A stretch of DNA of 64,000 nt, taken from NCBI GenBank assembly GCA_025937235.1, contig JAICRU010000002.1:6304-70303 (forward strand), read 5' to 3'. Position 1 is the first letter of the stretch; every line of letters starts with the position of its first letter. The translations under genes and the position numbers were made by a program. Under the pieces are notes generated by a model. That model saw nothing but the letters and a program-made list of their open reading frames with translations. It ran no database searches and was not told the origin of the DNA. Shown piece after piece: positions 10,874-27,286 of this stretch. The DNA is from Acidimicrobiia bacterium (GTDB lineage Bacteria > Actinomycetota > Acidimicrobiia > Spongiisociales > ZC4RG35).

Positions 10874-10895
10874 CTGATGTTCACACTCCAAATCT

Positions 10896-11618: not shown

Positions 11619-11670
11619 GTGTGCACTCCTTGTCCTTACATGACGAGTGGTGCCCGAGGCGTATCTGGTC

Positions 11671-13230
11671 TCACGACGAGAGGAGCTCCGAGACGTCGGA
11701 GGGAGCAACCTCGAGGACCCGCGGCGCCGGGCCTTCCGTCCCGGCGTACTTGAACATGCGAGGCTCGAGCTCTTCGAGATGTCTTGTGGCGAGACAGGAG
11801 AGGACTCGCCGGAAGATGTTCGGCAGGATCACTGTCTCCCCAACCGAGCACTCTGCCCCGTCGCGGACGGCAAGAAACACATTGAACCTCTCCGCCAAGT
11901 CCGCACGAGACCAGGTCCCCGGGTCACGGACCAGCTGGTTGCGTTGGTCGGTCCCGTGATCGCCAACGACAATCATCACGTCGTCAGGCTGGATCCTGCG
12001 ACTCAGATCGACGATGAACCGGTCCACGCACTCTGTCTGCTTCAGATATGCAGTTCTACGTCGCAGTGGGTCGTCGCCGGGTCTGGCGAATTGGACGCCG
12101 CTGTGCTCTTCGCCGAATCGCGTCCGACAGCTGTCGTCGAGGAAAAATGGCGGGTGTGGCGCCATGACATGCGCGAACACGAAGTTGGGCTGTGAGTCCA
12201 GGGACAACGACGGGCCGTTCGCATCGAGCCAGCTCATCGTGTGCTGGGCCCCCACCGTGAACGCATACCCCAACGACCGCAGGACCGATTGGCCTGCGAC
12301 CGATCTTTCGGCAATGGAGAACATCGCTTCGTCCATGATTGGAGACGCGATACAGGTGTCGACTTCCGGGCCGCAGCGTGACCCGCTCCATCCAGACTCG
12401 ACCATGACAAGCTCATAGCCCTCGGCTGCAAGTACGGAGCTCACCGAATTCGAGCCCCCGATCATGTCTGAGAGACGCCTCTCGGTCATCGGCGTGACAT
12501 CGCTGCCTGGTTCGAGTGGGTAGGACATGTCGAGCAGGCTCGGCAAGGAGGAACGTGTTGCCGGGTAGGCGCTCCACGCCGACGACGGAACTTCGAACCC
12601 GAGCTCCTCGAGGTCTTGAACGGCCGTTGACCGATCTAGGCCGAACTCGGATTCGAGGGTGAGGTTCCCTGCGTAGCCATCGAGCACCACCACGAAGATG
12701 TCGGGCCTCTCCGACAACCCGACTAGCGGAACCTGGTGTTCCACCACCGAGTTATCGCCACGATCGGCGAGCTCTCGCACAAGGGCGATTGTCGGCCCTG
12801 AGATGAGAAAGGCAGCCAAGGACATCATGACGATCCTCAACACGGCATGGCTCTCGAGACGTGATATCAGGAACACGATCGTCCCAGCCAGGCCCAGCAA
12901 CAGAGCCCACCCGACCGGCCCGCCAAGGTTGGTCAGTAGAGGACCGGACGTCATCGTAAGGATGGTGGCAATGAAGACCGAGAACACGGCCGTTGTCGAG
13001 CGAACACCAAGGCGAACGAAAATCGTGACGACCACCGAACACGAGAGCCAGAGCAGCCCCACAAGAGTCAGGATCCTCTCCGGGTGCCCGATGTCGAAAG
13101 GGTTGTTGGCCATCACCCCAAACGGAACGAAAGCCACGGCACAACCCAAGAGCGCGATATCGGTCCACCTGACCCTTCCACTTGGCTTCTCCAGGCGACG
13201 GATCTCGGGTTGGCGTTGTGTGATGGTCAT
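11671..13230 (-). CDS. Membrane-anchored sulfatase/alkaline-phosphatase-superfamily enzyme (LtaS or phosphoglycerol/phosphoethanolamine transferase-like)
   Basis: N-terminal block of about 5 TM helices followed by an extracytoplasmic domain. That domain carries metal-site motifs of the sulfatase family (VVVLDGYAG..., VVGDHGT). Confidence 0.55.
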   Translation of the reverse strand: MTITQRQPEIRRLEKPSGRVRWTDIALLGCAVAFVPFGVMANNPFDIGHPERILTLVGLLWLSCSVVVTIFVRLGVRSTTAVFSVFIATILTMTSGPLLTNLGGPVGWALLLGLAGTIVFLISRLESHAVLRIVMMSLAAFLISGPTIALVRELADRGDNSVVEHQVPLVGLSERPDIFVVVLDGYAGNLTLESEFGLDRSTAVQDLEELGFEVPSSAWSAYPATRSSLPSLLDMSYPLEPGSDVTPMTERRLSDMIGGSNSVSSVLAAEGYELVMVESGWSGSRCGPEVDTCIASPIMDEAMFSIAERSVAGQSVLRSLGYAFTVGAQHTMSWLDANGPSLSLDSQPNFVFAHVMAPHPPFFLDDSCRTRFGEEHSGVQFARPGDDPLRRRTAYLKQTECVDRFIVDLSRRIQPDDVMIVVGDHGTDQRNQLVRDPGTWSRADLAERFNVFLAVRDGAECSVGETVILPNIFRRVLSCLATRHLEELEPRMFKYAGTEGPAPRVLEVAPSDVSELLSS

Positions 13231-15343: not shown

Positions 15344-15943
15344 CTATTCAGGCCTTGTCAGATACCCAACCAGTCGGCGGACCGTCGCTTCCAGCCCTTC
15401 CAGGTCGCCGTGGTTGGGCACGACCAGGGCGGCTCCCGCCAGCCACCGTGCCCGGGAGGGCTGGGCGGCCATTCGCTCCCTGACCTCCGCCTCCAACATC
15501 CCCCGTTTCATCGCCCGTCGCACCCGGACGTCGTCCCGAGCATCGACCACGATGCGCGGCCAGCCCAGCCCTGGATCGACCAGGGGCATCTCCACCGCTG
15601 CCACTCCATCAAATCCCTCCAATTCGGCTTCGATTCGGCCGAATATCAACGGATGAGTGATCTCTTCCAGGGCTCGGAGCTCGTCAGGGTTGGCGAACAC
15701 GATCCGGGCGAGCGTCTTGCGGTCTATCTCGCCTTCGAAGACGACCCCCGGCCATCTGGCGGCGACCGGGGCCAGGGCTTCATCGGCCAAGACGGCGTGG
15801 CCAACGGCATCGGCGTCGATGGTGCGAAGGCCGTGCGTCGCCAATAGACGGCGCACCTCGCTCTTTCCCGAACCGATCCCACCCGTGATCAGCCAACGTC
15901 CATCCGGAGAACTCACCGCTGCCGACGGTAGCCTTCGGAGCAT
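15344..15943 (-). CDS. coaE: Dephospho-CoA kinase
   Basis: P-loop [14 protein letters not shown] and the rest of the CoaE fold. The conserved coaE-uvrB adjacency is kept (11-nt gap). Start is ambiguous between ATG 15943 and an in-frame GTG 33 nt downstream. The ORF-track start at 16063 is an artefactual extension. Confidence 0.75.
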
Positions 15944-17453
15944 GACGGTCGCCGTTCCGGCTCCGTGGGAATTCCGCCTCCATCGCAGCGTCACTATCGG
16001 GCAGTTCGTGGTGCTCATCCTGGCGGTGGTCATCGATCTGCTGGCGAGCGGAGGCCAGCCCAACCGTGACTCTCTGTTGGCGATCGCCGTCGCGACCTTC
16101 TATGTGCTGGGGAGCGCCGCCGTCCCCGAGAGCTGGTATCGGATTCGTTTCGGGGCGGAGGCGATCACTCTGGTCGGCGCCTTCCTCACCATCACCGCGG
16201 TCACCCTCACCGGTGGGGTGGCCAGCCCCTACATCCTGCTCTCGATGGGCCCATCCATCTTCGCCACCATCTACGGGGGGCTACGCACCGGGCTGACCAC
16301 CGGGCTTCTCTCGATTGCCCTTCTCACCTTGGTCAGCCTTGCCCAAGGACAGCCACTGACCGCAGCCCTGCCCGCCATGGGCCTGTACATCGCCTTCGTG
16401 CTGCTCGTCACCGTGATCCGCCGATTGCTCGAGGATGCCCATCGCCAGGCCGGAGAGCTGGCCGAGGCGACCGAATCCGCCACCCAGAAGCTGGAGAACC
16501 TCGAGGAGATCCACGGCGTGCTGCTCCGTCTCTCGGAAGACATCTCGGCCGGCCGTCTCAATGCGGTGGAAGTGGCTGCCGACACCCTCGAGGCGATCCT
16601 GGCCCGGAGCCCGGGCTCATCGGGGCGTCTGGTGCTGAACGAAGCAGAAGGGCCCGTGATTCTCGCCTCGCGGGGTGTCCCTCCTCCGGAGCCTCATCCC
16701 TACAAGGTTCCACTCTCCACCGTCGACAGCACGGTCGGCACCCTCGAGTTGCTCACGCCTGAACCTCTCTCCAAGCCCGACCTGATCGATATCGAAGCCT
16801 TCGTGCAGCCGGTCAGCATCGCGTTCGCCAACCTGCAGCTCCTCCAGAACATCGTCGGGTCGGCGGTGGCAGAGGAAAGGATCAGACTGGCCCGGGAGAT
16901 GCACGACGACATCGGACCTTCTCTCGCCTCCTTGGGTCTTGCCCTCGACATGGCCGCGATGCAGCAAGCCCATCACCCTGAGCTGTCGGCAGATCTGAAG
17001 GTGCTTCGCACCAATGTCACCAAGCTCGTCGAAGATGTGCGCGCCTCGGTGGCCGATCTCCGGATCGCTCCGGGGCCCACCCTGACGGCCAGGCTGCTCC
17101 AGTCCACGGCCGGGCTCGATGGCGGCCCCCAGGTCGTGGTGGACCTCGAGGAGCGACGACCGCCACGGCCGGCTGTCATCGCCGACCTGACCTCGATCAT
17201 CACCGAAGCGACCAGGAACGCTCACAACCATTCTGGGGGCTCTCAAATACTGGTCTCGGGTCGCATCGACCGCAGCCGCGGGGTCTGCTCAGTGATCGAC
17301 GATGGCGCCGGCTTCGATCCCACATATGAGCCGGACGGTCATTTCGGCCTCATAGGCATGCGGGAACGTGCCGAGAAGATAGGGGCGAAGATCAGTTTTC
17401 AACCGACACCCGGAGGAGGCACCACCGTGAGAGTTGAATGGGGTAACCGATGA
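15942..17453 (+). CDS. Sensor histidine kinase, NarL/LuxR-partner type (HisKA_3 + HATPase_c)
   Basis: Multi-TM N-terminus, a GAF-like middle region, an H-box (REMHDDIGPSLASL) and N/G-box ATPase motifs. Start is the internal ATG at 15942. The ORF-track start at 15657 runs antisense through coaE. The stop overlaps the response-regulator start as ATGA. Confidence 0.8.
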   Translation: MTVAVPAPWEFRLHRSVTIGQFVVLILAVVIDLLASGGQPNRDSLLAIAVATFYVLGSAAVPESWYRIRFGAEAITLVGAFLTITAVTLTGGVASPYILLSMGPSIFATIYGGLRTGLTTGLLSIALLTLVSLAQGQPLTAALPAMGLYIAFVLLVTVIRRLLEDAHRQAGELAEATESATQKLENLEEIHGVLLRLSEDISAGRLNAVEVAADTLEAILARSPGSSGRLVLNEAEGPVILASRGVPPPEPHPYKVPLSTVDSTVGTLELLTPEPLSKPDLIDIEAFVQPVSIAFANLQLLQNIVGSAVAEERIRLAREMHDDIGPSLASLGLALDMAAMQQAHHPELSADLKVLRTNVTKLVEDVRASVADLRIAPGPTLTARLLQSTAGLDGGPQVVVDLEERRPPRPAVIADLTSIITEATRNAHNHSGGSQILVSGRIDRSRGVCSVIDDGAGFDPTYEPDGHFGLIGMRERAEKIGAKISFQPTPGGGTTVRVEWGNR

Positions 17454-18088
17454 TTCGCGTCATGATCGCCGATGATCACCAGCTGTTCGCAGAGGGGTTG
17501 AGCCAGGCGCTGGACATCCTCCCCGACACCCGTGTCGTGGGTGTCGTGGAGTCCGGTCCGGCCCTCGAGGCGGCACTGGAGACCCAACCGGCCGAGGTGT
17601 CGATCGTGGACATCGAGATGCCCGGCGGTGACGGGATCGACACCATCTCCGGACTGGGACGGAGGACCAACGCCATCGTCGTGTCGATGCATGCCAACGA
17701 AGAGCAAAAGGAGCGCGCTTTCAGGGCCGGCGCCAAGGGCTTCTTCTCCAAGGGGGTGCCGCTCTTGACCCTGGCGGCCGCGGTGCGAGCGGTGGCGGAC
17801 GGTCAGGACCTGATATCGCTCGATGAGACAACTCGAGATGAGCTGCTCGAGCACTACGGGCAGGCCCGTCTCGATCCGGGTGCGGCCTCGCTCACCGAGC
17901 GAGAGAAGGAGATCCTGCAGCTGCTCGCCGTCGGTGTCTCTGCCACAGATGAGCTGGCTGACCGTCTCTACATCTCGCAGAAGACGGTCAAGAACCACCT
18001 CGCTTCCATCTTCCAGAAACTGGCCGTGAGCGACCGGACCCAGGCCGCCATCGAAGCAATCCGACTTGGGATAGCCCGGCCCAACTAG
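17450..18088 (+). CDS. NarL/LuxR-family response regulator (receiver + HTH)
   Basis: Receiver domain (MIRVMIADDHQLF...D...K) and a C-terminal LuxR HTH (LTEREKEILQLLAVGVSATDELADRLYISQKTVKNHL). Confidence 0.9.
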   Translation: MIRVMIADDHQLFAEGLSQALDILPDTRVVGVVESGPALEAALETQPAEVSIVDIEMPGGDGIDTISGLGRRTNAIVVSMHANEEQKERAFRAGAKGFFSKGVPLLTLAAAVRAVADGQDLISLDETTRDELLEHYGQARLDPGAASLTEREKEILQLLAVGVSATDELADRLYISQKTVKNHLASIFQKLAVSDRTQAAIEAIRLGIARPN

Positions 18089-18165
18089 TCACATGTTGCC
18101 AGGGTTATCGAAACGATTTTGGGCCTTGAGGCCCATCATCGAATTCCACGATAGGACTTACTCTG

Positions 18166-18366
18166 ATGCGGGTGAGCAAGGGAGTTGAAGTGTACGCCAG
18201 GGTTATTAGGTACCTCGGCGACGAGAAGGGTGCTTCTCTCGTCGAATACTCGCTCCTCGTGATCCTCATAGCCATCGCGGCCTTGACCGCCGTGGCTTAC
18301 TTCGGCGGTGAGCTGAGCAGCACATACTCAGACATCAATTCGAATCTGGTGGACGCGGGGCCGTAG
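18166..18366 (+). CDS. flp: Flp-family type IVb pilin (divergent paralogue 1)
   Basis: Flp prepilin motif G/ASLVEYSLLVILIAIAAL, read as the prepilin-peptidase cleavage site plus a hydrophobic helix. An alternative in-frame GTG start at 18190 has a better RBS (AAGGGAG) and gives a 16-aa leader. Confidence 0.7.
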   Translation: MRVSKGVEVYARVIRYLGDEKGASLVEYSLLVILIAIAALTAVAYFGGELSSTYSDINSNLVDAGP

Positions 18367-18376
18367 GGGATAGTTC

Positions 18377-18395
18377 CCGGGACCCATTGTCCCGG
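18377..18395 (+). terminator. Hairpin just downstream of flp-1
   Basis: CCGGGAC-ccatt-GTCCCGG, a 7-bp perfect stem starting 11 nt after the flp-1 stop. No U-tract follows. Confidence 0.3.
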
Positions 18396-18455
18396 TGGTA
18401 GGTAGGGCTACTTTGCCCGATTGCAAGCCAAGGCAACAACCCAAGGAGGGGTTCC

Positions 18456-18629
18456 ATGTTTGCTCTGTGGACTAAGTTCACCAGCTGGATTCAGGAGGAG
18501 AAGGGTGCCTCGATGGTTGAGTACGCCCTGCTCGTCGTCCTGATCGCCATCGTTGCTCTCGTCGCCGTGCAGCTCGCCGGCAATGAGGTCTCCTCGACCT
18601 TCAGCGAGATCGGTTCCGGCCTGGCGTAA
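18456..18629 (+). CDS. flp: Flp-family pilin (paralogue 2); 57 aa, below the ORF-track cut-off
   Basis: ATG 18456 preceded by AAGGAGGGG. Product is MFALWTKFTSWIQEEKGASMVEYALLVVLIAIVALVAVQLAGNEVSSTFSEIGSGLA. Found by manual translation. Confidence 0.75.
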   Translation: MFALWTKFTSWIQEEKGASMVEYALLVVLIAIVALVAVQLAGNEVSSTFSEIGSGLA

Positions 18630-18648
18630 GCGTCAGAGATTGAGTATG

Positions 18649-18682
18649 AGAGGGGGCTCGCACTTCGGTGCGGGCCCCCTCT
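18649..18682 (+). terminator. Strong stem-loop with UUCG tetraloop downstream of flp-2
   Basis: AGAGGGGGCuCGCAC-UUCG-GUGCGgGCCCCCUCU: a roughly 15-bp GC-rich stem capped by a UUCG tetraloop, 20 nt after the flp-2 stop. Confidence 0.45.
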
Positions 18683-18819
18683 CATGTGTGCGACTGCTGC
18701 CTGGAGCACAACGGGATCTGGTCGCGCCGGTCATTTTTCCGATATTCCGACTCAGGTTTTTGACCGAACGGGTCGATATATCGATGCAAGCCAATTTCGT
18801 TGACCCAAGGAGGGGCTTC

Positions 18820-18993
18820 ATGCTTGCTTTGTGGACCAAGGTAGTGAGCTGGGCGAAGGATGAGAAGGGTGCCTCGATGGTTGAGTACGCCCTGCTCGTT
18901 GTCCTGATCGCCATCGTCGCTCTCGTCGCCGTGCAGCTCGCCGGCAATGAGGTCTCCTCGACCTTCAGCGAGATCGGCTCCGGGCTCAGCTGA
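18820..18993 (+). CDS. flp: Flp-family pilin (paralogue 3), near-identical to paralogue 2
   Basis: ATG 18820 preceded by AAGGAGGGG. Product is MLALWTKVVSWAKDEKGASMVEYALLVVLIAIVALVAVQLAGNEVSSTFSEIGSGLS. The ORF track reported it only as the tail of a 146-aa TTG-started ORF. Confidence 0.75.
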   Translation: MLALWTKVVSWAKDEKGASMVEYALLVVLIAIVALVAVQLAGNEVSSTFSEIGSGLS

Positions 18994-19014
18994 GCAACGC
19001 TCAGATCCAACAGT

Positions 19015-19040
19015 GAAGGGACCTCTTCGGGGGTCCCTTC
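19015..19040 (+). terminator. Stem-loop with UUCG tetraloop downstream of flp-3
   Basis: GAAGGGACCuC-UUCG-GgGGUCCCUUC: an 11-bp stem with one G.U pair and a UUCG loop, 22 nt after the flp-3 stop. Confidence 0.4.
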
Positions 19041-19136
19041 TCCTTGGGGCCATAGGCCTAACGACTCATTGCCGCCATCCGAAGGGAATCGTACCTTTGT
19101 GTCCGTAGGACCGGTCGCAGATCAACGGGAGGCATC

Positions 19137-19301
19137 GTGTCACGGTTGTGGACCAGGCGGTTAAGCGAGGAAACGGGCGCCTCCATGGTGGAATACGCCT
19201 TGCTCGTGGTCCTCATCGCCATCATCGCCCTCCTCGCCATCAGGCTTGCCGGTACTCAGGTCTCCGAGGCCTTCAGCGAGATCGGCTCTGGTCTCCAGTG
19301 A
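19137..19301 (+). CDS. flp: Flp-family pilin (paralogue 4), GTG start
   Basis: GTG 19137 preceded by GGGAGG. Product is VSRLWTRRLSEETGASMVEYALLVVLIAIIALLAIRLAGTQVSEAFSEIGSGLQ. There is no upstream in-frame ATG before a TAA at 19059. Confidence 0.65.
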   Translation: MSRLWTRRLSEETGASMVEYALLVVLIAIIALLAIRLAGTQVSEAFSEIGSGLQ

Positions 19302-19307
19302 CCGAGT

Positions 19308-20654
19308 TCATGGTCTCAGAACGACGAAATCCTGGTCTTCGTATTCCTCCGACCAGCCGGTAGCCTCGAGCTCGTCGACCAGATCTTCGTCGGCCCTCAG
19401 GAGCACCTGTCCGATACCATCCCGCTCGAACACCGGCTCCCAGTCACGCTTCAGATCCCTGACCTCTACGTATTCGATCATCCGATCGCCATAGAGCTCG
19501 GCCCGATCGTCGATGTAGACCAATCGCTCCGGGCCCTCAGCCCAGATCAGATAGCCGCCTGCGCTGTCGTCGTGGAAGGTGGGCACATGGGCCAGCCACC
19601 CCGCGGCGGCGACCGGAAAGCGCTCCTCGTCGATCGACCCGTCGGAGATGATGAACCACGGTGTGACGAGCACAACGAGGCCAAAGACGGCTGCCGCGGG
19701 CGCAGAGAACCGTTTCCTGGCGCCGGCGGCCATGTCAGCGAGGGCGACACCCATCAGGGGCACAAGAGCGATCCACGCCGGCGGGACAGCCCGGGTCGCG
19801 GTCAAGGCAAGGAGCAGAAAGGGAACGAGGATGATCAGGTGACGAGGGGTGACTCGTTCTCGAACGGCGCCTATCACGATCAGGCCGATCCCGATCAGGA
19901 ACGGGGCGAAGACCACCGACAGGAGCTCAGGGCGTCTCCACTCGGAGAGAAGGGCCAGGGCAGGCCCGGCGTCGGAAAAATCGAGCAGGAACTCGAGAAC
20001 CCCCAACCCGTGCGCGGTGAGGAACGTGGCCAGCCCGGCGACGATCGCCGTCGGGAGCGACTTCCACTCCTTCTCGAGGAGGATGGTCAGACCCACATAG
20101 GCCAGCCCGATCACGAAGCTCCCATGAACGGAGGCCCAGATCCAGAAGAGAAAAGGGATGGTCCATCGGGTGACGGGTCGGTCCCACGCCACGACCACCA
20201 GAACGAAGAGGGCAAAGGAGAACAAGACCGGCCTGGGGACCAGGAAGGAGATCATCAGCAGCGTGGACAGGGCCACGATGATCGCCGTCGACCATTCGCT
20301 CCTCGACCGGCGGTAGGCGACCAGCCCGATCCCCAAGAATGTGATCGAGCTGAGCAGGAGCATCATCGGTGGCACGAAGCCGAGGCCCCAGTTGGACTCG
20401 CCCCAGGCATAGACGAGCTCGGCCAGCCAGCTCTGGGTCAGCCAGCGCTCCCCCAGCATGGTGAAGGAAAAGGGGTCGGCGGTGAGTACCTCTCCGGCGT
20501 TGGCCTGCAGCTCTCCTGCCCGGACATGCCACAGGAAAGAGTTGTCCCGGATCGGGGCCCAGGCATCGATCACCAAGGCCACAAACGGCACCAGGAGAGC
20601 CAGGTGCGCCAGAGAGAAGTGTCGCTGAGTCGGTCCCGGCGCCGCCAGCGCCAT
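19308..20654 (-). CDS. Uncharacterised polytopic membrane protein (about 10 TM plus a roughly 108-aa C-terminal soluble domain); last gene of the tad operon
   Basis: The start ATG overlaps the tadC stop as TGATG, so it is translationally coupled. There is a large first extracytoplasmic loop with conserved Asp residues and an acidic C-terminal domain. No A24 prepilin-peptidase motif (GGDVK) and no recognisable Tad family signature. Confidence 0.6.
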   Translation of the reverse strand: MALAAPGPTQRHFSLAHLALLVPFVALVIDAWAPIRDNSFLWHVRAGELQANAGEVLTADPFSFTMLGERWLTQSWLAELVYAWGESNWGLGFVPPMMLLLSSITFLGIGLVAYRRSRSEWSTAIIVALSTLLMISFLVPRPVLFSFALFVLVVVAWDRPVTRWTIPFLFWIWASVHGSFVIGLAYVGLTILLEKEWKSLPTAIVAGLATFLTAHGLGVLEFLLDFSDAGPALALLSEWRRPELLSVVFAPFLIGIGLIVIGAVRERVTPRHLIILVPFLLLALTATRAVPPAWIALVPLMGVALADMAAGARKRFSAPAAAVFGLVVLVTPWFIISDGSIDEERFPVAAAGWLAHVPTFHDDSAGGYLIWAEGPERLVYIDDRAELYGDRMIEYVEVRDLKRDWEPVFERDGIGQVLLRADEDLVDELEATGWSEEYEDQDFVVLRP

Positions 20655-21595
20655 CAGTTGTTGGCGAATGCGCCGCCGATCGAAATGGCGGCCGGGCCCA
20701 ACAACACGATGAAGAGGGCCGGGAAGATGCAGAACACCAGCGGGAAGACCAGCTTCACCGGCGCAGCGAACGCCTTCTCCTGGGCTCGCTGGCGACGCTT
20801 GACTCGCATCTCGTCGGCCTGCACCCGCAGCACCCGGGCGATCGTCACACCGAAGGCCTCGGCCTGGATCATGGCCAGGATGAAGGAGCGGAGCTCCTCG
20901 AGATCGGTGCGGTCCATCAGATGCCTCATGGCGTCGCGTCGGCTCACACCCACCCGGGTTTCTTGGAGCATCCGGAAGAACTCCTCCGAGAGCGGTCCAG
21001 GAACGGTGGCGACGACCCGTGACAGGGCGGCATCGAAACCGAGCCCGGCCTCGACCGAGATGACCAGCAGGTCGAGCACGTCGGGCAGGGCCCGCAGCAT
21101 TGTCTGACGCCGGTCATCGATCTTTCTTTGCAGCCATGCATCGGGACCGAAGAAGCCGAGCACGATCGGCATGCCGAATAGGAAGATCCGCTGCATGCTG
21201 TCACTGCCGAAGTCGGACAGGAAGAAAGCGGCGAACAGACCGGCCACCGTGGTCAGGAGCTTGATGACGATGAACGATGGGGCGTCGAGGTTGCCGGGGT
21301 TGCCCGCCAGCACCAGCTGATGCTGCTTCTTCTCCAGGTAACCCACCGGGGTGAACCGGCGCAGGAAACCAGAGAGCTTGAGCACCACGGGGCCGATCGT
21401 CCGTTGTGCCAGGGGCTTGGACAGCTCCTCGTCGCGGACCGAGCCGGAACTGGCCCGGCCGTAGACGGCGAGCCTGTTGTTCATGTCCTCCCGGGCCCTG
21501 GTGACACCGAGCCCGATCCAGACGATTACGAAGAAGACCAGAGCCGACACCGTGACCACGGCGAGCATCTGACCGTCGAGTGCTGTGATGTTCAT
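20654..21595 (-). CDS. tadC: Tad pilus assembly inner-membrane platform protein TadC (T2SS-F/GspF domain)
   Basis: 313 aa with a single GspF-type domain flanked by TM helices. Follows TadB and is coupled to it; the upstream stop overlaps this start as ATGA. Confidence 0.8.
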   Translation of the reverse strand: MNITALDGQMLAVVTVSALVFFVIVWIGLGVTRAREDMNNRLAVYGRASSGSVRDEELSKPLAQRTIGPVVLKLSGFLRRFTPVGYLEKKQHQLVLAGNPGNLDAPSFIVIKLLTTVAGLFAAFFLSDFGSDSMQRIFLFGMPIVLGFFGPDAWLQRKIDDRRQTMLRALPDVLDLLVISVEAGLGFDAALSRVVATVPGPLSEEFFRMLQETRVGVSRRDAMRHLMDRTDLEELRSFILAMIQAEAFGVTIARVLRVQADEMRVKRRQRAQEKAFAAPVKLVFPLVFCIFPALFIVLLGPAAISIGGAFANN

Positions 21596-21708
21596 ACTTC
21601 GATGTTCACGATCTTCCGGAGCCAGAAAATTCCACCGGCCATGAGGATGAGTCCTGCGACGATGGCGATCCGGCCCAACGTCGCGGCGAGCAGCGGCTGG
21701 AAGTATTA
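21592..21708 (-). other. In-frame continuation of the TadB domain after a TAA codon (final transmembrane helix of TadB)
   Basis: Immediately after the TAA at 21708..21706 the same frame reads YFQPLLAATLGRIAIVAGLILMAGGIFWLRKIVNIEV and ends with TGA overlapping the tadC ATG. This is the canonical TadB C-terminal helix. Confidence 0.6.
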
Positions 21709-23547
21709 ACGGTTGTTGAAGCAGAGGAAGGCACCCAAGGCGAATGGCAGAGAGCCGAGCACGATCGCCGAGATCCGGCCCTCGGCGGTGAGCGCCTTGA
21801 TCTCTCCCTTGAGCCGGTTGCGGGCCAGCATGGTGTCGGCCACCGTCTGCAGAACCTCGGCAAGGTTGCCCCCGACCTCACGCTGGATCTCGATTGCCAT
21901 CGTGGCCCACTCGAAGTCCTTCGAGTTCGTGCGTTCCACGATTCCCTGCAGCGCTTCTGGGACCGAGCGACCGAGTCGGGACTCGACGACGGCTCGGGAG
22001 AACTCCCGCGCTGTCGGATCCGGCGCTTCGGCAGCCACCGCTTCGATTGCCTGGAGCAGGGAGTAGCCGGCCCGGAGGGAGGTCGACAGCAGGGTGAGCG
22101 TGTCGGGCAGCTGCTTCTCGAACCTCTTCCGCTCTCGGTTGCCGGCCCACCTGACCAGGATCATGAACCCGAGGAGCATGATTCCGAAGGTGGCCAGGCC
22201 CCACAGCGGCGAGTTGAAGATGGCGACGAAGACACCGCCCACCGCGGCGAGCCCGATCATGGCCAGGATCGCCTCGCCGGGGGACATCGGCACGTTGGCC
22301 TGCTCCAGGGCGGCGTTCACTCCCGAGAGCATCCCGCGCCGGCGTACCTCTTCTTCGGCAGCCTGGCTGAAGCGGTTGATCAGAGGGATCCGCTGCAGAA
22401 GCGGCTTCTTTTCCTCCTCGCCCGTTCTGGACCGCCGCCCATAGGCCTGGAGCCGTTTGGCGAAGCGACCCCCTCCCTGCTCCTCTTCACGGCCGAAGAG
22501 GATGATGATGAAGAGGAAGGCGGTCAGACCGATCCCTGCCGCACCGATGAGGGCCAGGTTGGTGATGCTGAGGGGGGAGCTGCTCTCGACGACGCTTCCC
22601 GTCACAGGGACCGGGACGGTTGTCGTTGTCGGGGCCATCGTGGTGGTGGTCGCATACCCGCTCACTGGGAAGGCGACCGTCGAGGTCAGGCCGCCGGGGT
22701 AGGTGGCCGCGAACTCGGCTTCGCCGGGCGCGGCCACCGGGGAAACGAATCGGGCAACGAGGGTGTTGCTGATCTCACGGCTGATCTGGCCGTAGAGTCC
22801 GGAGAGCTGCGCCGGATCGGGAGTCGACAGGAACAGCCCGCCGCCCGCGGTGGCGAACGCCGACACCGCCTCGGGGTTGAAGTCGGGTGACTCCAGGGCC
22901 ACGCCGAACACACGGGCATCTCCGGCCTCGATCGCTGCGATCGCCGCGTCCGCCGTGGCGGCAGACGCGGTGTCCTCGCCGTCGCTGAGCACGATCATGT
23001 TGTTGAGCTGGGTCGGGGGAACGCCCTCGAACAGCGACATGCCGAGGATCACACCGTCGTTGAGGGCTGTCTCACCATCGGCGACGAGTGCATCGACCCG
23101 CTCGTGCAGCACCTCGGCATTGGTGGTGAACCCGGTCTGGACCACCGCGGTGTCGGCGAAGCTGACTATCGCGATCGAGTCCTCGGGGCGCTTCTGGTCG
23201 ATGAAGCTGTTGGCAGCCGTTTTGGCCGAGTCCATCGGCGCTCCGAGCATCGAGCCTGAGGTGTCGATCACCAGAACCACACCCACCGGGACGCTGGACT
23301 CGCCGAGCGGGGCCACCTCTAGATCCGAAACCGGTTGGCCGTCGACCGTGACCGCCAGCTGGGCCGGGTCCGGGGCCTCGGGAAGGTTCCGGAACTCGAC
23401 CACCATCTGGGTCTGGCCGCCTTCGGCATAGCGCGAGCCGTTGATATCCACGATCTCGATCTCGGGCGCAGTGGTCTGCGCGATCGCAGCGGTGCTCACC
23501 CCGAGCACGAGGGCGCCGACCAGGGCAGAGAGACGTCTCAAGCTCAT
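21706..23547 (-). CDS. tadB: Fusion protein: signal peptide, von Willebrand factor A domain, Thr/Pro-rich linker, TM, then a TadB (T2SS-F) platform domain. The TadB domain is truncated by an in-frame TAA.
   Basis: N-terminal signal peptide (LSALVGALVLGVSTAAIAQ). VWA MIDAS motif DxSxS (VIDTSGSM). Low-complexity TTTTMAPTTTTVPVPV linker, then a TM helix and a GspF-type domain. The start overlaps the tadA stop as ATGA. Confidence 0.7.
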   Translation of the reverse strand: MSLRRLSALVGALVLGVSTAAIAQTTAPEIEIVDINGSRYAEGGQTQMVVEFRNLPEAPDPAQLAVTVDGQPVSDLEVAPLGESSVPVGVVLVIDTSGSMLGAPMDSAKTAANSFIDQKRPEDSIAIVSFADTAVVQTGFTTNAEVLHERVDALVADGETALNDGVILGMSLFEGVPPTQLNNMIVLSDGEDTASAATADAAIAAIEAGDARVFGVALESPDFNPEAVSAFATAGGGLFLSTPDPAQLSGLYGQISREISNTLVARFVSPVAAPGEAEFAATYPGGLTSTVAFPVSGYATTTTMAPTTTTVPVPVTGSVVESSSPLSITNLALIGAAGIGLTAFLFIIILFGREEEQGGGRFAKRLQAYGRRSRTGEEEKKPLLQRIPLINRFSQAAEEEVRRRGMLSGVNAALEQANVPMSPGEAILAMIGLAAVGGVFVAIFNSPLWGLATFGIMLLGFMILVRWAGNRERKRFEKQLPDTLTLLSTSLRAGYSLLQAIEAVAAEAPDPTAREFSRAVVESRLGRSVPEALQGIVERTNSKDFEWATMAIEIQREVGGNLAEVLQTVADTMLARNRLKGEIKALTAEGRISAIVLGSLPFALGAFLCFNNR

Positions 23548-24902
23548 CGGCCCCTTGCGAATGGCTCGGGATCGAACAGGTCGGCGGGGAGCCGGATGCC
23601 CTGGTTCTCGAGATCTTGGGAGAAGGTCGGCCGGATCCCGGTCGCCTTCAAGCGGCCTTTGTAGACACCGTCCTCGTCGACCCCCATTCCGTAGTCGAAG
23701 AGGAAGATGTCCTGGAGGGTGATGATCTCCCCTTCCATGCCTTCGACCTCGGTGACATGAGTCACCCGGCGGGTGCCGTCCTTGAGACGGGACACGTGGA
23801 TGATCAGGTCGACTGCAGCCGCGATCTGCTCCCGGATGGCACGCACGGGGAGATCGAAGCCGGCCATCAGCACCATGGTCTCGATACGGGAAAGGGTGTC
23901 TCTCGGGCTGTTCGAGTGCACAGTCGTCAGGGAGCCGTCATGACCGGTGTTCATGGCCTGGAGCATGTCGAGGGCCTCGGCGCCTCGAACCTCACCGACC
24001 ACGATCCGGTCCGGACGCATACGCAGTGTGTTCCTGACCAGGTCACGGATGGTGACGGCGCCCTTGCCCTCGATGTTGGCCGGCCGTGACTCCAGCGTCA
24101 GGACGTGCTCCTGATGGAGCTGGAGCTCGGCGGCGTCTTCCACGGTCACGATTCGCTCGTCGCCGGGGATGTATGAGGACATCACGTTGAGGGTGGTGGT
24201 CTTACCGGAACCGGTACCGCCGGAGATCAGGACGTTGAGCCGGCCCCGGACACATGCTCTGGCGAAGTCGGCCACACGCTGGGTGATCGTGCCGAAGTTG
24301 ATCAGGTCCGCTTCCTGATAGGGATCCACCGCGAACTTTCGGATGGTTAGGAAAGGTCCGCCGATCGCCAGCGGGTGGATCACGGCATTGACACGAGACC
24401 CATCAGGGAGGCGGGCGTCCACCATCGGGGTCGCTTCGTCGACGCGACGACCGATCTGGCCGACGATCTTGTCGATGATGCGGCGGAGGTGGACCTCGTC
24501 GACGAACTTGACGTCGGACAGGACGATCTTGCCCCGCTTCTCGAAGTAGACGTCGTAGGGGCCGTTGGCCATGACTTCGGTCACGTCCGGGTCGTTGAGC
24601 AACGGGTCGATTGGCCCGTAGCCGAGCACATCCGAGGCGATCTCGTTGAGCAGGGCACGACGGTCGGCGGAGGTGAGGGGAAGACCCTGCTCCTGGTCGA
24701 CCGCCCATTCCAGCATCTCGAGGACGCGAAGACGGAGCTCGGCGTCCGACATCTGGCGGTCGTACAGGGTCGGGCCCAGCTCCTCGACCACCTTGAAGTG
24801 AAGACGTCCCCTGAGCTCGCTCAGGGCATCCGAGCGAGTGGAGCTGACCTCCTGGGTCTCTGTCTGCCTGGCGGCTGCGACTCTCTCTGAAAGCGATGGC
24901 AC
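23544..24902 (-). CDS. tadA: Tad pilus assembly ATPase TadA/CpaF (secretion NTPase family)
   Basis: Walker [16 protein letters not shown], Asp box, Walker B and His box ([14 protein letters not shown]), all typical of CpaF/TadA. Confidence 0.9.
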
Positions 24903-24918
24903 TGTTATTTACCTTCCA

Positions 24919-26103
24919 CTATTTGCGACCGAAGAGCCCGCCCCTGGACGTGCCTTCGGGAATCTTCCCGGCGATCAACTCGGCGACACTCTCGAAACCC
25001 TTGGCGATCTTCCCCCTGGGGTCTGTCTCGACGATGGGGCGTCCCTCGTTGACCGAGTTGGGGACGGCGGCATCGGAAGGGACCGAGGCCTTGATCTCCA
25101 TCTTGAGGGCGCTCTCGATCTCCTTGTTGTCCAGCTTCGCCTTCGAGTTGTTCCGATTCATGACGAGCTGGACGTTCTGGGTCGAGAACTTGAGCAGCCG
25201 CAGGGTCTCCAGGGCGAGCTTGGCGTTTTTGACCGAAGGGAGATCCATGTCCACCACCATGAGCACGTGGTCCGCCTTCTCGATGAGGGACAGGATCAAC
25301 TCGTCCAGCATCGAGGCCGTGTCGACCACGACGTAGTCGTAGCTCTCCTGGAGGATGTCGAGCATCTGCATCAGGCCTGCCGTGGTGATGTCGTCGGCGA
25401 AGGCCGGCTCGAGGGGAGCAGCCAGTACCTTCAGGCCGCTGGGGTGCTCCGTGAGCAGAGAGTCGAGCATCTCTCCATCCAGGTGATGGAGCTCATGGGC
25501 TGCGTTGACCATGGTGAACCTCGGCTCCAGTTGGAGGAGGAGGCAGACATCCCCGAACTGGAGGTCTGCGTCGACCAGCACCACTTTCTTGTCCGGGAAC
25601 CGGTTCAAGAGGAGGGCGACGTTGGTGGCGGTCACGGTCTTCCCGCTCCCGCCCTTGGCCGAGGTCACGGTCACGATCGCTCCCCGCTGCTCGGTGCGAA
25701 CGGGCTCGGCCGCCGGCTTGCCGGCGGTGCGCCGCTTCAGCACGTCGTGAGCGAACTGCTCGATCGCCGCCTCGATCTTCGACTCGTCGAGAGGGGCCTC
25801 GATGACATCGGAGACACCGGCTCGCATGGCACCACGGAGGAGATCGGCCGTGACCGTGTCGGCGACCATCATCAGGATCAGAGCCGGATCCTGGTTGTGC
25901 AGGTTCCGGATGTGCTCCAGCGACTCGTCGTTCGAGAACGAGGGGCCGAGCAGGAGCATCCTGAGGTCGCCTGACTCCGCGGTCTGACTCGCCTCCTCTA
26001 TGGAGCGAGCGACCGGGAGCCGGCCCTCGAAGAGCTCCTTGGCCGCGGAGACGAATTCATCGTCTTTGTCCACGACCAGCAGGTTGTGCTCAGCCATCGA
26101 CAT
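24919..26103 (-). CDS. tadZ: TadZ/CpaE: atypical receiver-like N-domain fused to a ParA/MinD-type ATPase
   Basis: Deviant Walker A (TSAKGGSGKTVTATNVA) and an N-terminal CheY-like ARD domain. Confidence 0.8.
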   Translation of the reverse strand: MSMAEHNLLVVDKDDEFVSAAKELFEGRLPVARSIEEASQTAESGDLRMLLLGPSFSNDESLEHIRNLHNQDPALILMMVADTVTADLLRGAMRAGVSDVIEAPLDESKIEAAIEQFAHDVLKRRTAGKPAAEPVRTEQRGAIVTVTSAKGGSGKTVTATNVALLLNRFPDKKVVLVDADLQFGDVCLLLQLEPRFTMVNAAHELHHLDGEMLDSLLTEHPSGLKVLAAPLEPAFADDITTAGLMQMLDILQESYDYVVVDTASMLDELILSLIEKADHVLMVVDMDLPSVKNAKLALETLRLLKFSTQNVQLVMNRNNSKAKLDNKEIESALKMEIKASVPSDAAVPNSVNEGRPIVETDPRGKIAKGFESVAELIAGKIPEGTSRGGLFGRK

Positions 26104-26116
26104 GGTCGAACCTCAA

Positions 26117-27040
26117 TCAGCTTCCAAATATGTCGTCCAGCAGATTCCCGCCGAACAGGTTGAGTGTGGTCACACCGGTGGTCTCCACCTCGACGAAGTC
26201 GCCGGGGACCAGGGTCAGCCAGATCGAGCCGTTCTCGGATGCGTAGGCAATCCGCTCGGCCTGCTCAGGTGTGACCTCGAGAGTGAACGTGGTGTCGTTA
26301 CCGGTGTCTTCCTCGACGGGCTCACCCTCGGGGGTGGTGTCGCCGGTCGTTGCCGGATCGGCCTCCACCGTGTCGGGGGCGTCCTGATCGGGCCTGATGT
26401 CACGCCCGGTGGCCATCACCGGCAGCCCCTGCAGAACGAAACGGGTGTAGGTCACCACCGCGATGGTCTCCTCGCTGGGAGGCTGGCCTTCGACCGGAGC
26501 AGCCGGCTGCTCGGCGATGCCGCTCAGCTCCTCGGGGAGCAGGTCCTCGGGGATGTCGATGGTGATGATCATATTGACCCTGTCGCCTGGCTCTACGAAC
26601 CCGTTGATGCCCCTGATGTTGTCGGTGGAGATGGTCATGGCCTGCTTGCCGGAGGGAATCTCCTCGGCGAGAGGGATCACGTCGACCGTGATGGAAGTCC
26701 ACTGTGACTCGGTCAGGATCGACCCGGCCGCGATCGGGCCCGCTGCGACGCGATCGGCGAGCACCTGGTTCAACTGCTCAGCGGAGGTGATGGCGCCGAC
26801 CGGCACATCCTCGGCCTGGTCTTCGCTCAGGGCGATCTGCGTCCCGCCGCTGTTGAAGTCCGAGAGGAGGATGGCCCCGTCCGTGCCCTCGGGGATGGCC
26901 TCCCCGGCGCGGTAGACCTCGACGATCTCCTGGCCTTCGGTTATCTCGTTCTCGACGTTCTGGAGATAGTTCCAGACAGCCCATGCGGCGAGCCCGGCCA
27001 GTATCAAGGCCACTAACAAGACGATGGCTCTCCTACCCAT
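26117..27040 (-). CDS. cpaB: Flp pilus assembly protein CpaB/RcpC (SAF + RcpC domains)
   Basis: N-terminal TM anchor (MGRRAIVLLVALILAGLAAWAV) followed by SAF and RcpC-like domains and an acidic Thr-rich tail. Start at ATG 27040 is preceded by GAAGGGGA. The ORF-track start at 27091 lacks an RBS. Confidence 0.75.
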   Translation of the reverse strand: MGRRAIVLLVALILAGLAAWAVWNYLQNVENEITEGQEIVEVYRAGEAIPEGTDGAILLSDFNSGGTQIALSEDQAEDVPVGAITSAEQLNQVLADRVAAGPIAAGSILTESQWTSITVDVIPLAEEIPSGKQAMTISTDNIRGINGFVEPGDRVNMIITIDIPEDLLPEELSGIAEQPAAPVEGQPPSEETIAVVTYTRFVLQGLPVMATGRDIRPDQDAPDTVEADPATTGDTTPEGEPVEEDTGNDTTFTLEVTPEQAERIAYASENGSIWLTLVPGDFVEVETTGVTTLNLFGGNLLDDIFGS

Positions 27041-27262
27041 TGAGTCCCCTTCGTATTTCCCCTGGGAAGGCGTTCCACCCGATGTCGGCACATGCCCGAC
27101 GACATGCTACCGATGGGCAGGCGCCATTCCGGTGCTTCGAGTCCGATTCCACAGGGATTGTTCGGACCGTATGAGACCAGTCTTGAGGGTTTCGCGGCAC
27201 ATTCCATAGTTCGGTCGCCCCATATGCGCGACGTCCGACGGCCGGCTGATCTCGGGTAGGTG

Positions 27263-27286
27263 TAAGTGACCCCTCGGTCACTTACG
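27263..27286 (-). terminator. Perfect 10-bp hairpin overlapping the rpsA stop codon
   Basis: GTAAGTGACC-cctc-GGTCACTTAC, a perfect inverted repeat. The rpsA TGA lies within the downstream arm. It separates rpsA from the tad promoter region. Confidence 0.45.

Follow-up and report, generated by a model that had tools for sequence, protein, structure and literature searches.

A predicted GT-C-fold membrane protein encoded between tadC and the flp pilin genes of Acidimicrobiia is a candidate glycosyltransferase of the Tad system

The window analyzed here, a 64-kb stretch of DNA from an Acidimicrobiia bacterium, contains a tad pilus module with a target gene of uncharacterized function, referred to below as X, on its minus strand, which the initial annotation had left unstated (19308-20654, stop codon included; all positions refer to the whole window). 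X encodes a 448-aa membrane protein with 11 predicted transmembrane (TM) helices and a predicted GT-C fold. The operon on this strand begins with rcpC/cpaB (26117-27091; Pfam RcpC 7e-21), whose product has an acidic and Thr-rich tail, and continues with tadZ/cpaE (24919-26103), which combines a receiver-like domain with a ParA/MinD ATPase (Pfam AAA_31, CbiA, ParA and Response_reg), and with the secretion ATPase gene tadA/cpaF (23544-24902; Pfam T2SSE 4e-65). These are followed by a tadB (21706-23547; Pfam VWA_2 1.8e-15, T2SSF 1.9e-20) whose fusion partners are a signal peptide at the N-terminus, a VWA domain and a linker rich in Thr and Pro (TTTTMAPTTTTVPVPVT), and by tadC, encoding a T2SSF platform protein (20654-21595; Pfam T2SSF 7e-20). 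On the plus strand, four flp pilin genes were recognized from their translated sequences: flp1 (18166-18366), which is divergent and has a longer tail, flp2 (18456-18629), flp3 (18820-18993) and flp4 (19137-19301). The last of these, with the Flp motif G|ASMVEYALLV in its translation, is convergent with X, the two stop codons lying 6 nt apart. The same strand carries the genes for a LuxR/GerE-type response regulator (17450-18088; orthologs with Response_reg and GerE) and a HisKA_3 histidine kinase (15657-17453; ortholog with Pfam HisKA_3 and HATPase_c), the latter at a conserved position in the module and with a true start probably downstream of 15657. Neither tblastn nor an HMM of the diverse family alignment revealed a paralog of X within the 64-kb window.

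The GC3 of X (0.82) and the more than 1000 homologs found in a search with its sequence confirm that X is a real gene. Its ATG is the earliest possible start in frame, homologs align from residue 1, and the start codon overlaps the tadC stop (TGATG) by one base, ...AACAACTGATGGCG, exactly the fusion that the initial annotation had described. Of the 78 loci that were selected via X and have tadC right before it, 44 show a gap of -1 or -4 nt between the tadC stop and the X start, and in nearly all of the 78 the gap does not exceed 22 nt. The stop/start overlap indicates that X is translationally coupled to, and probably made together with, TadC. The earlier designation of X as the terminal gene of the tad operon holds insofar as X directly follows tadC, but must be qualified by its convergence on the last of the four flp genes.

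The loci found through X (80 genome loci) display the order CpaB-TadZ-TadA-TadB-TadC-X, followed by convergent Flp genes, response regulator and histidine kinase, and this gene order holds down to 36-40% X identity. In about 80 genome loci of Acidimicrobiia, X lies directly after tadC and converges on one to five flp genes; it adjoins flp in nearly all of the approximately 150 loci having enough flank. The response regulator gene likewise adjoins flp in nearly all loci and is a conserved member of the module. In the reverse test, for which loci were selected via TadC (at least 64% TadC identity), X was directly downstream in all 70 metagenome loci that could be evaluated. Co-occurrence with tadC was seen throughout this set, and no tad locus without X was encountered among the 70. 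At this level of identity X is a fixed-position member of the tad locus, present in every evaluable locus, and it is conserved side by side with the pilin genes. Five more distant loci were sampled in addition. In four of them (L083, L084, L085 and L088), relatives at only 25-30% identity are still found right after tadC. In the fifth (L087), X has lost its place next to tadC and is still convergent with three flp genes, and in a member of the Terriglobales (Acidobacteriota; L170) a 26%-identical homolog is located directly upstream of flp-rcpC-rcpA-tadZ-tadA-tadB-tadC.

The region surrounding the module is itself syntenic in Acidimicrobiia, with rpsA present in 58 loci, coaE in 51 and uvrB in 48, so that conservation of the neighborhood alone could be inherited. 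X might thus be an envelope-glycan gene without any relation to the pilus, retained at the operon end by local synteny (polA-rpsA-[tad]-coaE-uvrB), and the finding that most of the wider family lacks a Tad linkage would be compatible with such an origin. However, the overlap of stop and start codon with tadC persists to about 40% X identity, the gene lies between tadC and flp, inside the inserted module and not at its housekeeping edge, the adjacency to flp survives the rearrangement in L087, and the Tad linkage in Terriglobales is independent and differently arranged, which together make an accidental association very unlikely.

Searches of X against Pfam and NCBIfam returned no family at E<=1 beyond noise, and a PDB sequence search with two X-family profiles gave no match; what surfaced in the sequence searches as a whole was noise (DUF7471, and fragments of YidC and PsbY). 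Among 92 diverse family members compared with Pfam, none matched PMT/GT39, ArnT-PMT_2/GT83, STT3/GT66, GT87, YfhO, DPY19 or Emb/Aft. The absence of peptidase A24 and TadD/E/F/G matches in Pfam/NCBIfam agrees with the earlier view that X is neither a prepilin peptidase nor a named Tad component, and no unrelated housekeeping family was matched either. An initial AF2 model from a shallow alignment (pLDDT 66.8) was superseded by a model built from the 92-sequence diverse alignment (pLDDT 95, pTM 0.93). In Foldseek comparisons this model matched STT3A/B and ArnT with a probability of 1.00 and a TMq of 0.50-0.60, and its overall fold agrees with the conserved transmembrane module of GT-C proteins; the structure matches were to GT-C proteins only. 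The predicted structure thus shows X to have a GT-C fold, as the initial annotation had suspected from topology. The resemblance to Wzy_C-type enzymes, which it had considered alongside, did not hold, and a Wzy_C/O-antigen-ligase identity was rejected, as there was neither a Wzy_C Pfam match nor an O-antigen-ligase-type structure among the matches.

According to the model and the positive-inside rule, X possesses 11 TM helices, rather than the approximately 10 counted previously, with the N-terminus inside and the C-terminus outside; the cytoplasmic loops contain 14 K+R in 58 aa, and the short external turns only two Arg, R141 (at least 90% conserved) and R288 (invariant). With 11 instead of about 10 helices the C-terminal domain becomes extracytoplasmic. 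This domain (residues 336-448; 19311-19649, minus strand), which had been described as acidic and soluble, is predicted to be a separate alpha/beta domain of roughly 113 aa with 30 D+E versus 10 K+R, and its fold resembles that of AglB in model comparison. The absence of an A24 candidate from the module and the 64-kb window raised the question whether X could substitute for the prepilin peptidase (TadV/CpaA); neither the window's hydrophobic ORFs nor the modules of the loci inspected included such a candidate. Type IV prepilin peptidases cleave the prepilin leader at the cytoplasmic face, however, while all conserved acidic residues of X face outward, the fold is that of GT-C proteins and A24 models in Pfam/NCBIfam do not match. 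A prepilin-peptidase identity was rejected on fold and sidedness, and the probability that X takes over this function appears negligible; tadV is often unlinked in Actinobacteria.

The X family alignment (92 sequences, 23-60% identity) contains nine invariant and 14 near-invariant columns, all of which fall in predicted external segments. The first extracytoplasmic loop (residues 33-89; 20388-20558, minus strand), which follows TM1 in the model, is placed outside by the positive-inside rule and is the putative catalytic loop, carries D37, H43, G47, D60, S63 and W76 in invariant or near-invariant columns. Its RDNSFLWH and DPFSF motifs show the strongest conservation in the family, with D37 conserved in at least 90% of the sequences and D60 invariant, which bears out the conserved Asp residues noticed previously in this loop and makes D37 and D60 candidate catalytic residues as judged from sequence. 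In the C-terminal domain, D382 and R384 are invariant and G366 and W434 near-invariant. Overall, the conserved set on the outer face comprises D, H, D, R, H, E, R, D and R, from which we infer that X is an active enzyme with an outer-face active site.

The X family is large (more than 13,000 50%-identity clusters at E<=1e-3). On plasmids of Sulfuricystis and Azospira, homologs are part of a cassette GT2 - methyltransferase - GtrA - X - X, in which the GT2 is PgfS/ArnC-like, i.e. of the undecaprenyl-phosphate-sugar-synthase type (E 3.6e-87 and 2.5e-61), and an Anaerolineae homolog occurs in a YfhO-GT2-GT87-X operon. The plasmid and Anaerolineae homologs keep the invariant residues. Away from tad genes were four of the five chromosomal contexts of sampled non-Acidimicrobiia homologs, in addition to those of Granulicella and the plasmid cassettes, indicating that specificity for pilins is not a general feature of the family. 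The occurrence of homologs in GT2/GtrA and GT2/GT87/YfhO cassettes suggests that the donor used by X is a polyprenyl-phosphate-linked sugar.

These data also bear on the second proposal of the initial annotation, a novel membrane platform subunit. A catalytically inactive X of GT-C fold could serve the inner-membrane platform as a structural component or by binding lipid, in analogy to PIG-U/GAB1 of the GPI transamidase, and the translational coupling suggests a production matched to that of TadC. However, the invariant charged and polar residues on the outer face are those expected of an active site, and they are equally conserved in Tad-less homologs within GT2/GtrA glycosylation cassettes. 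A platform role is therefore less likely than a glycosyltransferase, and we consider it unlikely.

With regard to the acceptor, 142 distinct Flp sequences from X-linked loci were compared. Their external tail of about 15 residues is Ser/Thr-rich (...G25-x-x-V-S29-S-T-F-S33...), with Ser29 conserved in 96% of the sequences and 65-76% Ser/Thr at positions 31, 33 and 37, although the conservation of Ser29 could alternatively reflect filament packing. N-x-S/T sequons are present in only 11 of the 142 linked pilins, which makes N-glycosylation unlikely, and an OST-like activity was rejected as the default. C-mannosylation as by DPY19-like enzymes was likewise rejected, since Trp occurs in two of the 142 mature pilins. 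We infer that Flp is the most likely acceptor and that Ser/Thr residues would be the sites of modification.

A possible alternative, although a doubtful one, is that X is an active, Tad-tied GT-C enzyme whose acceptor is other than the major pilin. Candidates would be CpaB, minor pilins and the Thr/Pro-rich linker of VWA-TadB, or else a polymer, wall-bound or lipid-linked, whose remodeling or decoration is needed at the site of pilus passage through the monoderm envelope. The evidence from fold, conservation and linkage is identical for pilin and non-pilin acceptors, and both the VWA-TadB linker and the acidic CpaB tail are available; such Thr-rich linkers and tails are typical O-glycosylation targets in Actinobacteria. 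Also in favor of a non-pilin acceptor are the non-Tad homologs that accompany envelope-glycan genes (YfhO, GT87 and Wza-like), and the homolog in L087 (P0194) that is fused to a class-A beta-lactamase-like domain, a peptidoglycan-related fold. On the other hand, X is kept at loci whose TadB has no VWA domain and linker (L083-L085 and L088), and the VWA-TadB linker can thus not be a universal acceptor, while in L087 and L170 X adjoins flp and not cpaB or tadB.

Modification of type IV pilins by membrane glycosyltransferases has precedents. PilO/TfpO and PglL, which belong to the Wzy_C family, act at the periplasmic face to modify Ser/Thr residues of type IV pilins, and tfpO is encoded directly downstream of pilA; AglB glycosylates archaeal type IV pilins. 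The protein-modifying enzymes STT3, AglB and PglB (GT66) have the same overall architecture as X, in which the GT-C membrane module precedes a C-terminal domain outside the cytoplasm. However, X is smaller (11 TM and about 450 aa versus 13 TM and 600-800 aa), has no detectable sequence similarity to these enzymes, and contains its own motifs (RDNSF, DPFSF, GGY and DDR) in place of WWDYG or DxD of the STT3 type. PMT (GT39) and ArnT (GT83), the latter acting on lipid A, differ from X by the absence of PMT, PMT_2 and ArnT Pfam matches and of MIR domains in X and by another C-terminal domain. In three-component systems consisting of a GtrB/ArnC/PgfS-type GT2, a GtrA-type flippase and a GT-C enzyme, the plasmid homologs of X fill the GT-C slot, whereas Tad-linked X has no GT2/GtrA partner inside the module; unlike the GtrC-type, YfhO, ArnT and PMT families, the X family has no Pfam/NCBIfam model. 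The closest functional analogue of X appears to be TfpW of Pseudomonas aeruginosa group IV, a GT-C pilin arabinofuranosyltransferase that is encoded beside pilA and O-glycosylates the type IVa pilin from a polyprenyl-phosphate-sugar donor (bioRxiv 10.1101/2020.04.19.049825). Both are GT-C proteins with a periplasmic loop 1, a large periplasmic C-terminus and a neighboring pilin gene. TfpW differs in being Emb-like and having a proline-rich motif, in its substrate, which is a type IVa pilin possessing a globular domain and not a 40-aa Flp pilin, and in the accompanying D-Araf biosynthesis genes dprE1/E2, which were not seen in this tad module.

In summary, the adjacency to flp in two phyla, the persisting flp linkage in L087, the 96% conservation of Ser29 and the precedent of TfpW make O-glycosylation of the pilin the mechanism best supported by genomic context. 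We favor, with a probability of roughly 0.55, the interpretation that X is an active, polyprenyl-phosphate-sugar-dependent GT-C glycosyltransferase of the Acidimicrobiia Tad system that likely O-glycosylates Flp. A cytoplasmic GT2 would make the polyprenyl-phosphate-linked sugar, which would be flipped outward and transferred by X, as by other GT-C enzymes, onto an acceptor at the outer face. The active site would lie at the outer membrane surface and be formed by the first external loop (D37, H43 and D60), the short external turns (R141, H177 and R288) and the long external loop (E238 and W239), capped by the C-terminal domain, which would contribute D382 and R384. The likeliest acceptor would be the Flp pilin while still embedded as a single-span membrane protein, since its tail would protrude just above the outer leaflet, within reach of a GT-C active site; glycosylation would then precede the feeding of the pilin into the filament by TadB/TadC. 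A more far-reaching version, which seems rather improbable, holds that X founds an unrecognized family of minimal protein glycosyltransferases of STT3/AglB architecture, the Tad-linked members being the long-missing dedicated Flp-pilin glycosyltransferases. Here, an 11-TM GT-C module and a capping domain resembling that of AglB, with D382 and R384 as its contribution to the active site, would act on the Flp tail in the membrane, beside the TadB/TadC platform. In its strongest form, this arrangement would be an echo of, or descend from, an archaeal pairing of pilin and AglB that accompanied the archaeal-derived Tad system.

Flp/Tad pili drive bacterial adhesion and biofilm formation. Glycosylation of Flp has been reported since 2000, namely for Flp1 of A. 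actinomycetemcomitans (PMC6182317 citing Inoue 2000; PMC12307814), and neither of these two sources names the responsible enzyme. The Tad pilus of Caulobacter, for which the one high-resolution structure exists, displayed no glycan density (PMC10710030). The Caulobacter tad locus is not known to carry X. Our literature search retrieved nothing relevant on a tad-encoded glycosyltransferase or on Tad pili of Acidimicrobiia, and none of the published tad loci found contained a glycosyltransferase. Lying beside the pilin genes in nearly all loci with enough flank, X is the best candidate so far for Flp glycosylation and gives the search for an enzyme that modifies Tad pilins a specific starting point that can be tested, fixed in the sampled Acidimicrobiia tad operons and recurring beside flp in Acidobacteriota. 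If the pilin is the acceptor, Tad pili of the X class, which in this analysis were represented by environmental metagenome assemblies alone, would be glycosylated, a property relevant to attachment to surfaces, recognition by phages and the structure of the filament. In addition, X reveals a large GT-C family without a Pfam/NCBIfam model or solved relative, whose signature residues are now defined and whose cultured or plasmid-borne members in Granulicella tundricola, Azospira sp. I09 and Sulfuricystis multivorans are available for biochemistry.

Genes of the donor pathway were sought inside the tad module, and no GT2, GtrA or sugar-nucleotide gene was found there. The nearest GT2 resembling a Pol-P-sugar synthase is located at 10896-11708, 7.6 kb away and beyond uvrB. 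The flanks of the compared loci end near uvrB, and in the window a sugar cluster extends from 7035 to 13230.

The gene X, which encodes a 448-aa protein from an ATG start, lies at 19308..20654 on the minus strand of the window (residue numbers refer to the full protein including the initiator Met). With a GC3 of 0.82 and more than 1000 homologs, every one annotated as 'hypothetical' and without a Pfam domain, it is a real gene, as the initial annotation had proposed, the strand being corrected here to minus. Searches of X against Pfam and NCBIfam returned nothing meaningful. Directly upstream lies tadC (20654..21595, minus; T2SSF domain in Pfam), whose stop codon has one base in common with the start of X (…AAC AAC TGA/ATG GCG…), so that the coupling previously suggested for the two genes can be read directly from the window. 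The genes ahead of tadC encode, according to Pfam, a VWA-T2SSF fusion (TadB), a T2SSE ATPase (TadA), a ParA/MinD-type TadZ and RcpC/CpaB, and X is therefore the last gene of a Tad operon. Four flp pilin genes, flp1 to flp4 (18166-18366, 18456-18629, 18820-18993 and 19137-19301, plus strand), run toward X, the flp4 stop codon lying 6 nt from that of X; upstream of these pilin genes are a response regulator gene of the LuxR type and one for a HisKA_3 histidine kinase. The longest kinase ORF (GTG at 15657, 598 aa) overlaps coaE (15344-16063, minus) by about 400 nt and has a low-complexity stretch in its first ~100 residues, and the ortholog in locus L001 has 501 aa; the true start is thus probably near 15950. 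No peptidase-A24-like (TadV/CpaA) candidate was found among the hydrophobic ORFs of the 64-kb window or in the tad modules of the related loci examined, and the tad module contains no TadE/F pseudopilin genes.

A first AlphaFold model of X, built from close homologs, had a pLDDT of 66.8 and matched only GT-C glycosyltransferases. An exhaustive profile search with the X family gathered 13,261 cluster representatives under an E-value limit of 1e-3, of which 5,755 passed 1e-10 and 278 passed 1e-30, mostly full-length matches of 450-500 aa, and a model from 92 diverse members (23-60% identity) reached a pLDDT of 95.0 and a pTM of 0.93. Foldseek aligned X with STT3A (TMq 0.60), ArnT (0.50-0.54), STT3B (0.53) and PglB (0.52), each at a probability of 1.00. 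These matches support the GT-C half of the earlier GT-C- or Wzy_C-like reading; the Wzy_C half is unsupported and a Wzy_C identity was rejected, and X is, as had been stated, not a prepilin peptidase. The model contains 11 membrane helices (15-32, ~90-117, 120-137, 142-158, 160-176, 180-194, 197-209, 247-264, 270-285, 287-304 and 318-334) instead of the roughly ten counted initially, together with a first loop of 57 residues, a further loop of 37 residues (210-246) and a C-terminal domain (336-448). Cytoplasm-assigned segments carry 14 Lys+Arg per 58 residues and the three short external turns only two, the conserved R141 (at least 90%) and the invariant R288, a distribution which implies an N-in, C-out topology with the acidic C-terminal domain (30 D+E vs 10 K+R) outside. 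Across the 92 aligned sequences H43, G47, D60, W76, W173, H177, R288, D382 and R384 are invariant, and D37, S63, G68, W71, L77, R141, P142, G216, E238, W239, P242, P347, G366 and W434 nearly so; all are located in external loops, at external helix ends or in the C-terminal domain. Active GT-C enzymes such as ArnT, PglB and PMT combine, in their structures, acidic residues in the first external loop with surrounding Arg, His and Glu, a pattern that the conserved residues of X appear to match. Judged from its modelled fold and loop Asp residues, X would work like a GT-C glycosyltransferase. Its sequence matched the profile of none of the curated GT-C families, and X profiles had zero profile-to-sequence similarity to the solved proteins searched. 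STT3/AglB are its nearest structural neighbours, and X differs from GT66 in lacking 13 TM helices, WWDYG, DxD and sequon-bearing acceptors. On this combination of a GT-C fold, failed sequence profiles and absent GT66 hallmarks we class X as a new family-level GT-C variant, in the new context of a fixed Tad-operon member. We estimate a probability of about 0.8 that X is an active, Tad-dedicated GT-C enzyme.

The link to the Tad system is conserved throughout the Acidimicrobiia sampled. Pattern-scanning the X alignment over 185,579 species genomes gave 197 relatives, the best 80 of which all belong to Acidimicrobiia-type MAGs. Tblastn with the window proteins recovered the order CpaB-TadZ-TadA-TadB-TadC-X, followed by one to five convergent flp genes, response regulator and kinase, in every locus with enough flank, and the CpaB-to-kinase order is kept down to 36-40% X identity; flp genes lay on the same strand as X in two of the loci compared. 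Measured from the tadC stop to the closest possible start of X, the spacing was -1 or -4 nt in 44 of 78 loci and rarely exceeded 22 nt; two outliers are frameshifted assemblies. Since these loci had been chosen through X, a reverse test was performed on 80 metagenome loci picked via TadC (64-94% identity), 70 of which had at least 200 bp downstream of tadC. X was encoded there in 70/70, so that its absence from relatives' tad loci, initially named as evidence against a Tad role, was not encountered. Distant relatives (25-30% identity, ~500 aa) directly follow tadC and converge with flp in loci L083, L084 and L088, and another follows tadC in L085, where the flank is missing; upstream in L083 there is also a PF13400 'Tad' gene. 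In L087 tadC and X have been pushed apart by an ABC-transporter insertion of 7 kb, and X still converges with three flp genes. This homolog (P0194, 9001-11178, 725 aa) ends in a class-A beta-lactamase-like domain (PF13354, E 2.9e-26) that would be extracytoplasmic, and the contig carries two tad operons around one flp/regulator/kinase set. In most loci the module of tad, X, flp and two-component genes (15657-28699 in the window), with X inside it, is situated between rpsA and coaE-uvrB (rpsA was detected in 58, coaE in 51 and uvrB in 48 of loci L001-L169), which are adjacent housekeeping genes in Actinobacteria, and it resembles an old insertion within polA-rpsA-coaE-uvrB synteny. Many long-read MAGs (MFD… bins; among them L004, L005, L007, L010, L015, L016, L018-L020 and L038) are titled 'uncultured Acidobacteriota bacterium'. 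Their X proteins are 66-87% identical to those of Acidimicrobiia-titled loci and the synteny is actinobacterial in both; the record taxonomy is probably wrong.

Outside this class, X-family members, all 'hypothetical' and without a Pfam domain, occur in Terriglobales, Anaerolineae, Planctomycetota, Firmicutes-like MAGs and others, some with TPR extensions. Tad genes were absent within 7-9 kb of the homolog in four of the five chromosomal contexts sampled there; L171 and L172 have separate Beta-lactamase-family genes 4-5 kb from non-Tad homologs. The gene for the Terriglobales homolog P0415 (locus L170; 26% identity over residues 36-445) immediately precedes, in the same orientation, a gene for a 54-aa Flp (MKGLAKLLWRNDEGQDIAEYAVML…), after which come rcpC, the rcpA secretin gene, tadZ, tadA, tadB and tadC. 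Because P0415 groups with non-Tad members, outside the Acidimicrobiia clade, in a crude NJ tree, the Tad association probably arose, or survived, in two or more lineages that differ in gene order.

The neighbours of these homologs point to a sugar donor. Plasmids pSTJ1 of Sulfuricystis multivorans and pAZI09 of Azospira sp. I09 encode a GT2, a methyltransferase and a GtrA-family protein, then two tandem X-family members that, like all plasmid homologs, retain the signature residues; the cassette, conserved between the two (L176 5093-10431; L178 4104-9437), also has PRTRC-D and a hypothetical gene ahead of the GT2 and a small ORF between GtrA and the X-family pair. The GT2 hit PgfS (E 3.6e-87) and ArnC (E 2.5e-61), two undecaprenyl-phosphate-sugar synthases, in each case under the NCBIfam equivalog cut-off. 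These plasmids are betaproteobacterial and conjugative or mobilizable, with TraG/TraH/TraF transfer genes directly beside the cassette. In an Anaerolineae operon of the order YfhO-GT2-GT87-X the homolog comes last, next to one gene of GT87 (L173 6756-7994), another GT-C family; two GT87 genes lie directly upstream of the Terriglobales homolog (L170 3494-6961), and GT87 adjoins an X paralog in L001 (18015-20612) and L016 (14029-15486), a few kb from the tad module. From the standard three-component layout of Pol-P-sugar synthase, flippase and GT-C in the homolog cassettes we infer a polyprenyl-phosphate-monosaccharide as the putative donor of X. No Pol-P-sugar synthase or flippase gene accompanies X in the tad module itself. 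Within the window, the closest candidate partner is a GT2 resembling Pol-P-sugar synthases (10896-11708; AglJ/PpgS/DPM-like), which lies beyond uvrB in a minus-strand surface-glycan cluster between uvrB and uvrA (7035-13230) that is a possible donor source and further encodes, all on the minus strand, a membrane sulfatase/LtaS-like protein (11671-13230), a UDP-GlcNAc 3-dehydrogenase-like protein (9845-10954), a DegT/PseC-type aminotransferase (8739-9992), a hexapeptide acetyltransferase (8171-8749) and an AZOBR_p60025-family 'glycopolymer formation' membrane protein (7035-8231). Elsewhere in the window, a DltB-like MBOAT gene (2704-4098, minus; TIGR04091, E 4.5e-47, below cut-off) adjoins an unannotated 312-aa gene (1764-2702).

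As to the acceptor, the mature pilins of the window (~40 aa) begin with a hydrophobic helix, after which comes the tail G25-N-E-V-S-S-T-F-S-E-I-G-S-G-L-S. The collected loci yielded 142 distinct mature Flp sequences, of which 96% carry Ser29; Ser or Thr occupies positions 31, 33 and 37 in 65-76% and accounts for 27% of the tail residues. N-x-S/T sequons are present in 11 of the 142 and Trp in two. The Ser29 conservation could also be structural and not linked to modification. Since a type IV prepilin before assembly is a single-span membrane protein with a cytoplasmic leader and an external C-terminus, the Flp tail would extend a few residues beyond the outer leaflet, at the very position where GT-C enzymes have their active site. 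TfpW, a GT-C enzyme encoded beside pilA, glycosylates pilin (bioRxiv 10.1101/2020.04.19.049825), and Flp1 of A. actinomycetemcomitans has been reported to be glycosylated, with no enzyme named in either source (PMC6182317; PMC12307814). Given the persistent flp adjacency, the TfpW precedent and the Flp1 reports, O-glycosylation of Flp by X would be the most economical mechanism and is the leading hypothesis. Pilin modification as first proposed thus gains from flp adjacency and TfpW; however, glycan density is absent from the Caulobacter Tad pilus (PMC10710030). Alternatively, X may act on a wall polymer or on the Thr/Pro-rich linker (…ATTTTMAPTTTTVPVPVTG…) of the window's own TadB (21706-23547, minus). 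In this TadB the linker is preceded by a signal peptide at the N-terminus and a VWA domain, a fusion that gives the platform protein an adhesin-like domain facing outward. This Thr-rich linker is not a universal acceptor, because X persists in L083-L085 and L088, where TadB is plain and without a VWA domain. The complete statement, including pilin glycosylation by X, we consider slightly favoured over its negation.

Of the four tandem flp genes within 18166-19301, three are near-identical; flp1 (18166-18366) has diverged from them and encodes a longer tail, whose last residues are …NLVDAGP. GC-rich hairpins are located after flp2 and after flp3 and none separates flp4 from the X stop 6 nt off, so that the transcripts of X and flp4 must overlap or each end within the other.
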